The notes beneath the pieces are model-generated. The model was not told the origin of the DNA. It was given only the letters and a program-made list of their open reading frames with translations, and did no database searches. 53,981 nucleotides of DNA, taken from IMG/VR virus record IMGVR_UViG_2529292919_000008; one strand, given 5' to 3'. Shown here in pieces: positions 49,667 through 50,259 of this stretch. The position numbers and the translations under genes were made by a program. The stretch's first letter is position 1; every line of letters begins with the position of its first letter. Source of the stretch: a virus. Taxonomy: Duplodnaviria > Heunggongvirae > Uroviricota > Caudoviricetes.

Positions 49667-50259
49667 CCGTTGCCCTCATTATCGTTATTCACCACCAGTC
49701 GGGGTGGCGGTGGCACCGCAAAACGGTTAGCCGCTTTTTTCGCGGCATCACCTTTTGCCGCTTTTTTCGCGGCATCACCTTTTGCCGATTTTTTCCCGGT
49801 ATCCCCTTTTTTATGGTGCGTGAACTGCGCCAGACGCCAGGCCGCATCCAGTGCCAGTTTCGGATCAATGCAGAGGTTTTCCACCAGGATCCGCCCCATG
49901 GCTTTCACCGGATCGGGAAGACCATCCTCCATATATTCAATACCAGGAGACATCACCGCGGACGGTGGCATCTCCGGATTGTTTTCGTCCGGCTGTGGTA
50001 TTGCAGCCGCCTCACGGCGACGGGGTTTATCCTCCTGCTCTGATTTTTTCTGCCGGTAAACAGGAACCTCATCCTCATCCACCTCCACCGTCTCGCATTG
50101 TTTACGGGCTATAAACGCAAGCACCTCCGGATCTTTTGCCAGCTGCGAGCCTTTAACCCTGGCGGTCTTCGCCGAATAACCGGCGGCAATGGCTGACGCT
50201 GTTTTGTTTTTCCCGGACATGAGCGCCAGCGCAAATTTTCGTTTTTGCGTTGTCAGCAC
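49663..50259 (-). CDS. Terminase small subunit
   Basis: 198 aa with HTH-like N-terminus, directly upstream of and overlapping TerL. Contains an internal KGDAAKKAA repeat. Confidence 0.55.
   Translation of the reverse strand: MLTTQKRKFALALMSGKNKTASAIAAGYSAKTARVKGSQLAKDPEVLAFIARKQCETVEVDEDEVPVYRQKKSEQEDKPRRREAAAIPQPDENNPEMPPSAVMSPGIEYMEDGLPDPVKAMGRILVENLCIDPKLALDAAWRLAQFTHHKKGDTGKKSAKGDAAKKAAKGDAAKKAANRFAVPPPPRLVVNNDNEGNG
49731..49811 (-). repeat. 27-bp coding tandem repeat in TerS
   Basis: CCGCTTTTTTCGCGGCATCACCTTTTG is identical at 49731-49757 and 49758-49784, followed by a degenerate third copy. Confidence 0.7.

Follow-up and report, generated by a model that had tools for sequence, protein, structure and literature searches.

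The stretch of DNA analysed here (53,981 nt, hereafter the window) is contig AIEY01000039.1 of Escherichia coli assembly GCA_000249115.2. On its minus strand, positions 49663..50259 hold a gene with a GTG start that encodes a small terminase subunit (TerS) of 198 aa, as identified from the list of open reading frames, Pfam, PHROG 641 and RefSeq, where the protein is present as WP_000958356.1, 'terminase small subunit'. Residues 2-57 match Pfam Terminase_2 (PF03592) at 35.8 bits against a cut-off of 26.1, a match that spans only profile positions 1-56 of 141; the match to PHROG 641 ('terminase small subunit') is full-length (E = 3e-67), and no NCBIfam model matches the protein. The TerS stop overlaps the start codon of the co-oriented gene for the large subunit (ATGA, 49663..49666). 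This gene, TerL (48005..49666, minus; 553 aa), lies directly downstream and matches both Pfam TerL_ATPase and TerL_nuclease above the cut-offs; it is followed by a prohead-protease/capsid fusion gene and then by a portal gene. About 290 nt upstream of TerS is the gene for an HNH endonuclease (50551..50916, minus; 121 aa, Pfam HNH above the cut-off, with the same annotation in relatives). We take the layout HNH-TerS-TerL-protease/capsid-portal to be that of an HK97-type cos packaging module. The family match, the adjacent TerL and a predicted plan of HTH, hairpin and flexible tail identify the 198-aa protein as a phage small terminase.

Within TerS, Tandem Repeats Finder (TRF) detects a period of 27 bp at 49730..49810, with 3.0 copies, 92% matches and no indels. 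The array is in frame with the gene on the minus strand; an earlier note, which had placed it at 49731-49811, was right that it is real and one base off in its position. In codon register, the three 27-nt units occupy 49729..49809 (minus; TRF and translation) and encode KGDTGKKSA (K151-A159, 49783..49809), KGDAAKKAA (K160-A168, 49756..49782) and KGDAAKKAA again (K169-A177, 49729..49755). The minus-strand read is CAT AAA AAA GGG GAT ACC GGG AAA AAA TCG GCA AAA GGT GAT GCC and continues, from GGT GAT GCC, with GCG AAA AAA GCG GCA AAA GGT GAT GCC GCG AAA AAA GCG GCT AAC. A scan at lag 27 found 31 consecutive identities, which correspond to a perfectly repeated block of 58 nt (49730..49787, minus; 2.15 exact copies). 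Under uniform base composition, about 6e-12 such runs are expected in 54 kb at lags 4-500, so the array is not a product of chance. TRF and the lag-27 scan thus bear out the earlier description of two identical 27-bp units with a degenerate third; the ORF position, Pfam Terminase_2 and PHROG 641 place the array inside the TerS coding sequence, and the translation and the unit positions place the KGDAAKKAA-type units in a basic C-terminal segment, both as had been claimed.

An AF2 monomer model, built with a 48-sequence alignment (mean pLDDT 68.9), predicts an HTH domain at residues 1-60 (helices within 4-60, pLDDT >90), a disordered linker at 61-110, a helical hairpin at 117-147 (pLDDT 79-91) and, from residue 148, a tail with no secondary structure (pLDDT ~46-66), in which the repeat takes up residues 151-177. 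A search of the PDB returned only weak matches (E = 0.19-0.39), all confined to the HTH, with none covering the tail. The only solved relatives are the DNA-binding domains of SF6/SPP1-type G1P (2cmp, 4zc3), which are alike in the N-terminal helix-turn-helix; compared with the solved relatives in Terminase_2/PHROG 641, the window TerS has a long disordered linker (61-110). In having the HTH followed by a helical hairpin and then by a flexible C-terminal moiety, the protein conforms to the general plan of small terminases (PMC9611059). This C-terminal moiety is flexible and binds TerL in lambda and P22, and it aids DNA recognition in P22 and HK97, becoming ordered on DNA (PMC9611059, PMC11331095). 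The tails of lambda gpNu1, P22 gp3 and HK97 TerS are flexible, basic C-terminal segments, like the tail of the window protein, although the sequence search against the PDB found no homology between the latter and these proteins. By analogy, the conserved basic tail may be a TerL- and/or DNA-contacting arm. The nine extra residues of the window protein lengthen the predicted tail in the part that connects the hairpin with the conserved NRF-x-PPPPRLVVNN end.

Of the 5,426 complete E. coli genomes, 1,253 contain matches to TerS; the gene also matches 94 phage records, which comprise Stx1a/Stx2-converting phages, PPompW prophages and Pankowvirus YYZ-2008. All 8 aligned relatives (83-100% protein identity) are 187 aa long, and one 27-nt unit (AKGDAAKKA) and the 6-nt GATGAG are missing from each of them. 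Because all 8 are without one 27-nt unit, the ancestral state is two diverged units, KGDTGKKSA-KGDAAKKAA, to which the window allele has added an exact copy of the second. The ancestral units A (KGDTGKKSA) and B (KGDAAKKAA) are identical at 21 of 27 DNA positions, and the exact unit pair is seen in the window allele only, the common allele consisting of two units that are 78% identical. The aligner placed the inserted 27-nt unit at 49761..49787, the register being arbitrary.

The conservation of the segment extends well beyond these close relatives. In an alignment of 48 homologues with identities down to 44%, including sequences from Klebsiella, Serratia, Hafnia, Enterobacter and Citrobacter, the best-conserved segment outside the N-terminal HTH is H-x-K-x-G-x-x-G-K-K-x-A-[KR]-x-x-A-A-K ... 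F ... P-P-[KR]-L-V-V-N-N, and the length of this C-terminal segment is essentially invariant in the 47 other homologues. The window TerS alone among the 48 has a 9-residue insertion at the array position; within the C-terminal half of the protein, the insertion thus sits where conservation is highest and length does not vary. The diverged unit and one KGDAAKKAA form an ancient two-unit motif, the length of which is conserved among homologues from the Enterobacterales; even homologues from Klebsiella, Serratia and Hafnia that are only 44-50% identical keep it in both sequence and length. The 'degenerate third' unit of the earlier note is accordingly present as a diverged unit, but it is not a decay product of the same expansion.

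The family also contains other length alleles. TerS of Escherichia albertii (P0016, 6 contigs) carries a 15-aa tandem duplication (DKPRRREAAAIPQPD, twice), and the in-frame deletions found among P0018, P0019, P0027, P0047 and P0050 mostly affect the disordered linker, the exception being P0019, in which 8 residues are lost from a predicted helical region. In the frameshifted TerS copies (P0014, P0031, P0044 and L007), the shift occurs at the A-rich repeat region or ahead of it.

The nearest relative of the TerS-bearing prophage is a lambdoid prophage of E. coli O127:H6 E2348/69, with which the window shares the gene order HNH-TerS-TerL-protease/capsid-portal. The 187-aa TerS of E2348/69 (WP_000958372.1, also found in strain Ecol_316) belongs to a family that likewise includes Pankowvirus YYZ-2008, PPompW prophages and many Stx1a/Stx2-converting phages. 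Its amino acids are identical to those of the window protein apart from two insertions in the latter, one of 9 aa (the third KGDAAKKAA) and one of 2 aa (DEDE in place of DE). Across the TerS-bearing arm (7,326 nt), the window differs from E2348/69 by 1 substitution and four indels, namely the 27-nt duplication, a 6-nt duplication and two 1-nt homopolymer changes (a G8/9 run at 50542 and a T7/8 run at 53926). Since E2348/69 lacks exactly one 27-nt unit despite a single substitution in 7.3 kb, the duplication is very young when measured against prophage divergence, in agreement with the recent origin that the earlier note had proposed. Of the two homopolymer runs, the one at 50542 sits downstream of the HNH gene and the one at 53926 near the contig end; either difference may be real slippage or sequencing error.

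The 6-nt difference is a second tandem duplication, GATGAG twice (50068..50079, minus), recognised in the protein alignment and as a 6-nt gap that the aligner placed at 50075..50080. It yields DEDE where relatives have DE and is absent from all 47 other homologues. Both multi-base indels in the 17.6 kb shared with E2348/69 are in frame and lie within the 597-nt TerS. Two in-frame indels in one gene are somewhat more than a neutral random process predicts, and their clustering could hint at selection or at a local hotspot. Divergence from E2348/69 is itself uneven, with 18 substitutions in the 10.2-kb portal-tail arm (1..10249) and 1 in 7.3 kb of the lysis-terminase arm (46656..53981), a pattern that might stem from a recombination boundary. 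No gaps interrupt the alignment of the left arm, which includes a further tandem repeat, located in the portal ORF (6796..9477, minus): a 162-nt period at 7262..7855 (3.3 copies, 95% matches; TRF) codes for units of 54 aa that belong to a C-terminal extension of the portal protein, the Pfam Phage_portal match of which covers residues 86-414. E2348/69 has the same number of copies of this portal repeat.

The window prophage differs from that of E2348/69 in being interrupted by a Mu-type phage. By BLAST, collinearity of the window with E2348/69 is limited to 1..10249 and 46656..53981; the two matches overlap by 5 bp in the subject, and a 5-bp direct duplication, AGTAC, flanks the insert (10245..10249 and 46656..46660). 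The insert (10250..46655, plus strand; BLAST against E2348/69, junctions and Pfam) is 36,406 bp long and has TG...CA termini. Its left end contains genes for a MuA-like transposase (11628..13670; Pfam Mu-transpos_C, HTH_Tnp_Mu_1 and rve) and a MuB-like AAA ATPase (13689..14582; Pfam AAA_22/TniB). The termini, the 5-bp duplication, the MuA and MuB genes at the left end and a length within ~36-40 kb mark it as a Mu-type transposable prophage. In E2348/69, eutC contains the same Mu-type end at 99.2% identity, and other strains have this end in unrelated genes; the left 7.7 kb of the insert has no near match among INPHARED phages, and a 42-nt tandem repeat (32889..32997; 2.6 copies, 79% matches, TRF) lies within the insert.

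The gene split by the insert is the prohead-protease/major-capsid fusion gene of the TerS-bearing prophage. The N-terminal fragment, the prohead protease part (Pfam Peptidase_S78), is at 46628..47941 (minus), and the C-terminal fragment, the capsid part (Pfam Phage_capsid), is at 9593..10369 (minus), across the break in collinearity at 10249/10250; the latter ORF, as listed, starts inside the Mu end. The intact counterpart in E2348/69 is 1,938 nt long and is annotated as 'phage major capsid protein'. With its protease/capsid gene split by the Mu-type phage, the prophage that carries TerS is thus unable to produce a capsid of its own. None of the complete E. coli genomes has the same Mu insertion site.

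Among the sequences searched, the three-unit allele is confined to the window. The duplication created a new sequence, GCGAAAAAAGCGGCAAAAGGTGATGC, at the B-to-B junction. The exact junction was not found in GTDB representative genomes; neither exact nor codon-degenerate patterns of it were found in IMG/VR, where the two-unit pattern, serving as a positive control, was found in at least 120 contigs; and the codon-degenerate junction was not found in JGI metagenomes. Complete E. coli genomes and INPHARED phages were searched by BLAST with a 69-nt two-unit probe. The three-unit allele was absent from 2,039 places in 848 records of the 5,426 complete E. coli genomes (best identity 95.2%), and INPHARED phages gave no match above 95% to the probe. 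The exact 198-aa protein is encoded by one contig alone among ~15 billion proteins, the allele thus being known from a single draft assembly.

The one-unit form was similarly rare, with none in IMG/VR (degenerate pattern) and none in complete E. coli genomes (synthetic one-unit query). The sole contraction found is a one-unit TerS allele (HHKKGDAAKKAA) in P0025, at 836..1372 of locus L132 (JBRKVR010000038.1), where divergence sets in directly behind the repeat and the place of TerL is taken by a tail-fibre gene; this allele lies in a rearranged prophage remnant without TerL. Two other sets of candidates for contraction were rejected, the 178-aa copies in P0014, P0031 and P0044 because they are frameshifted at or before the A-rich repeat region, and P0018 because its deletion is in the linker.

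The comparison of repeat number across related prophages and strains proposed in the earlier note thus gives a uniform answer, the third unit being missing from 8 of 8 relatives as well as from E2348/69. The expected copy-number variation between isolates was seen only in that the window differs from every other sequence examined; the three-unit form is a singleton, and the only contraction is in a remnant. From its distribution in the sequences searched, the locus looks like a private allele rather than a variable-number or contingency locus. The array resembles slipped-strand duplications and VNTRs of bacterial coding sequences in being perfect, head-to-tail, in frame and bounded by microhomology; it is unlike VNTR and contingency repeats in that one expansion and one contraction were found among thousands of copies.

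Taken together, these observations suggest that the window contains a recent, private, in-frame duplication of one 27-bp unit in the TerS gene of an HK97-type cos lambdoid E. coli prophage, a reading to which we assign a probability of roughly 0.85. Replication slippage is the likely mechanism, as judged from the ends of the units and from a hairpin in each. AAAAAA-N-CGGC forms the end of both ancestral units, and GCCGCG-AAAAAAG-CGGC, present in each exact unit, folds as a GC hairpin of 5-6 bp; the minimum free energy of the 94-nt region is -16.1 kcal/mol, compared with -9.5 +/- 2.2 kcal/mol for shuffled sequences (z = -3). In the proposed course of events, the nascent end ...AAAAAAGCGGC of unit B would move 27 nt upstream and pair anew with ...AAAAAATCGGC of unit A, after which unit B would be copied a second time, giving A-B-B with a new B-to-B junction.

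The same A-B-B outcome would result from unequal homologous recombination between misaligned TerS copies, located on sister chromosomes or in co-resident lambdoid prophages, and partners for such an exchange would often be available, E. coli genomes having up to 8 places that match TerS. However, the sequence shared at the exchange point amounts to no more than 4 exact bases (10 of 11), and RecA-dependent exchange needs far more than this. Moreover, no flanking mosaic was seen, with 1 substitution in 7.3 kb relative to E2348/69. Unequal recombination is therefore ranked below slippage, the shared sequence being too short for RecA, and we regard it as unlikely.

An assembly or sequencing artefact, with a true copy number of two or of more than three, has in its favour that the allele comes from a single draft assembly and that the same arm shows 1-nt differences in homopolymers (50542 and 53926), which are typical error sites. 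Against this, the B-to-B junction (…GCGAAAAAAGCGGC followed directly by AAAAGGTGATGCC…) is missing from the two-unit allele, in which A is unlike B at 6 of the 27 positions, so miscounting of the ancestral array cannot create that junction; furthermore, ordinary reads are longer than the perfect block of 58 nt, and the reading frame is kept by both tandem duplications. We consider an artefact, the outcome that the earlier note had named as refuting it, quite improbable; if the copy number is nevertheless wrong, a collapsed array of more than three units is more likely than a fabricated unit.

A selected change in copy number might retune the contact of TerS with TerL or with DNA, or might evade satellite or defence proteins, the locus being in that case an adaptive or contingency locus. 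Consistent with this are the two independent in-frame tandem duplications in a 597-nt gene, with 1 substitution in 7.3 kb, and the existence of other in-frame indel alleles in the family, such as the 15-aa duplication in E. albertii. However, complete genomes and IMG/VR yielded 0 three-unit and 0 one-unit alleles, the segment is essentially invariant in length across the 47 homologues, and the carrier prophage is defective, so that a packaging phenotype would go unexpressed unless TerS acts in trans. An adaptive origin is thus very unlikely. Selection on DNA or RNA rather than on the protein, with the unit-junction hairpin and a T-run on the plus strand forming an antisense terminator, could appeal to two terminator-like plus-strand matches (49742..49761 and 49770..49787) and to the hairpin z-score of -3, but 3 terminator-like sites compared with 1.6 +/- 1.1 in shuffled sequences are no excess, what distant homologues conserve is the amino-acid sequence (GKK...AAK..., at 44-50% protein identity), and this scarcely credible alternative, together with an antisense ORF at 49427..50059 (plus), was rejected for lack of terminator enrichment and given conservation at the level of TerS.

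With a slippage duplication as the preferred reading, the state of the prophage bears directly on its consequences. Because the capsid gene is split, selection on the terminase of the TerS-bearing prophage is probably relaxed, which fits a change of length in an otherwise length-invariant segment. Most probably, the 27-bp duplication is simply tolerated, as a neutral or slightly deleterious change, and it is probably neutral because the prophage that carries it is defective. Inactivation of the capsid gene by the Mu-type phage means that alleles in the terminase module should not be taken for functional variants.

The sole expansion and the sole contraction that were found both lie in defective prophages, and this shared context of the two copy-number variants is suggestive, with the proviso that there are two cases. 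A more far-reaching interpretation is that the two-unit motif is a length-critical spacer, or 'ruler', which would set the distance between the oligomerisation hairpin and the conserved ...NRF-x-PPPPRLVVNN segment, or else that selection favoured both TerS duplications for an action in trans, on a satellite or another phage in the same host. We think either version improbable. If the spacer interpretation is true, changes in copy number would be lethal to packaging and would survive only in prophages that are already dead; a constraint on the spacing of the basic tail of TerS in working phages is hinted at, by two cases only.

On the whole, the allele is an ordinary slippage variant of a known, annotated protein, one that is already in RefSeq, in a defective prophage. 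The three-unit form can serve as a strain-specific marker for the EPEC-lineage isolate from which it comes; beyond such bookkeeping, the finding matters little, and the Mu-type context is the more useful by-product. For the TerS family, the window offers a clean natural example of how slippage seeded by microhomology would make a perfect repeat out of an ancient motif of two diverged units.
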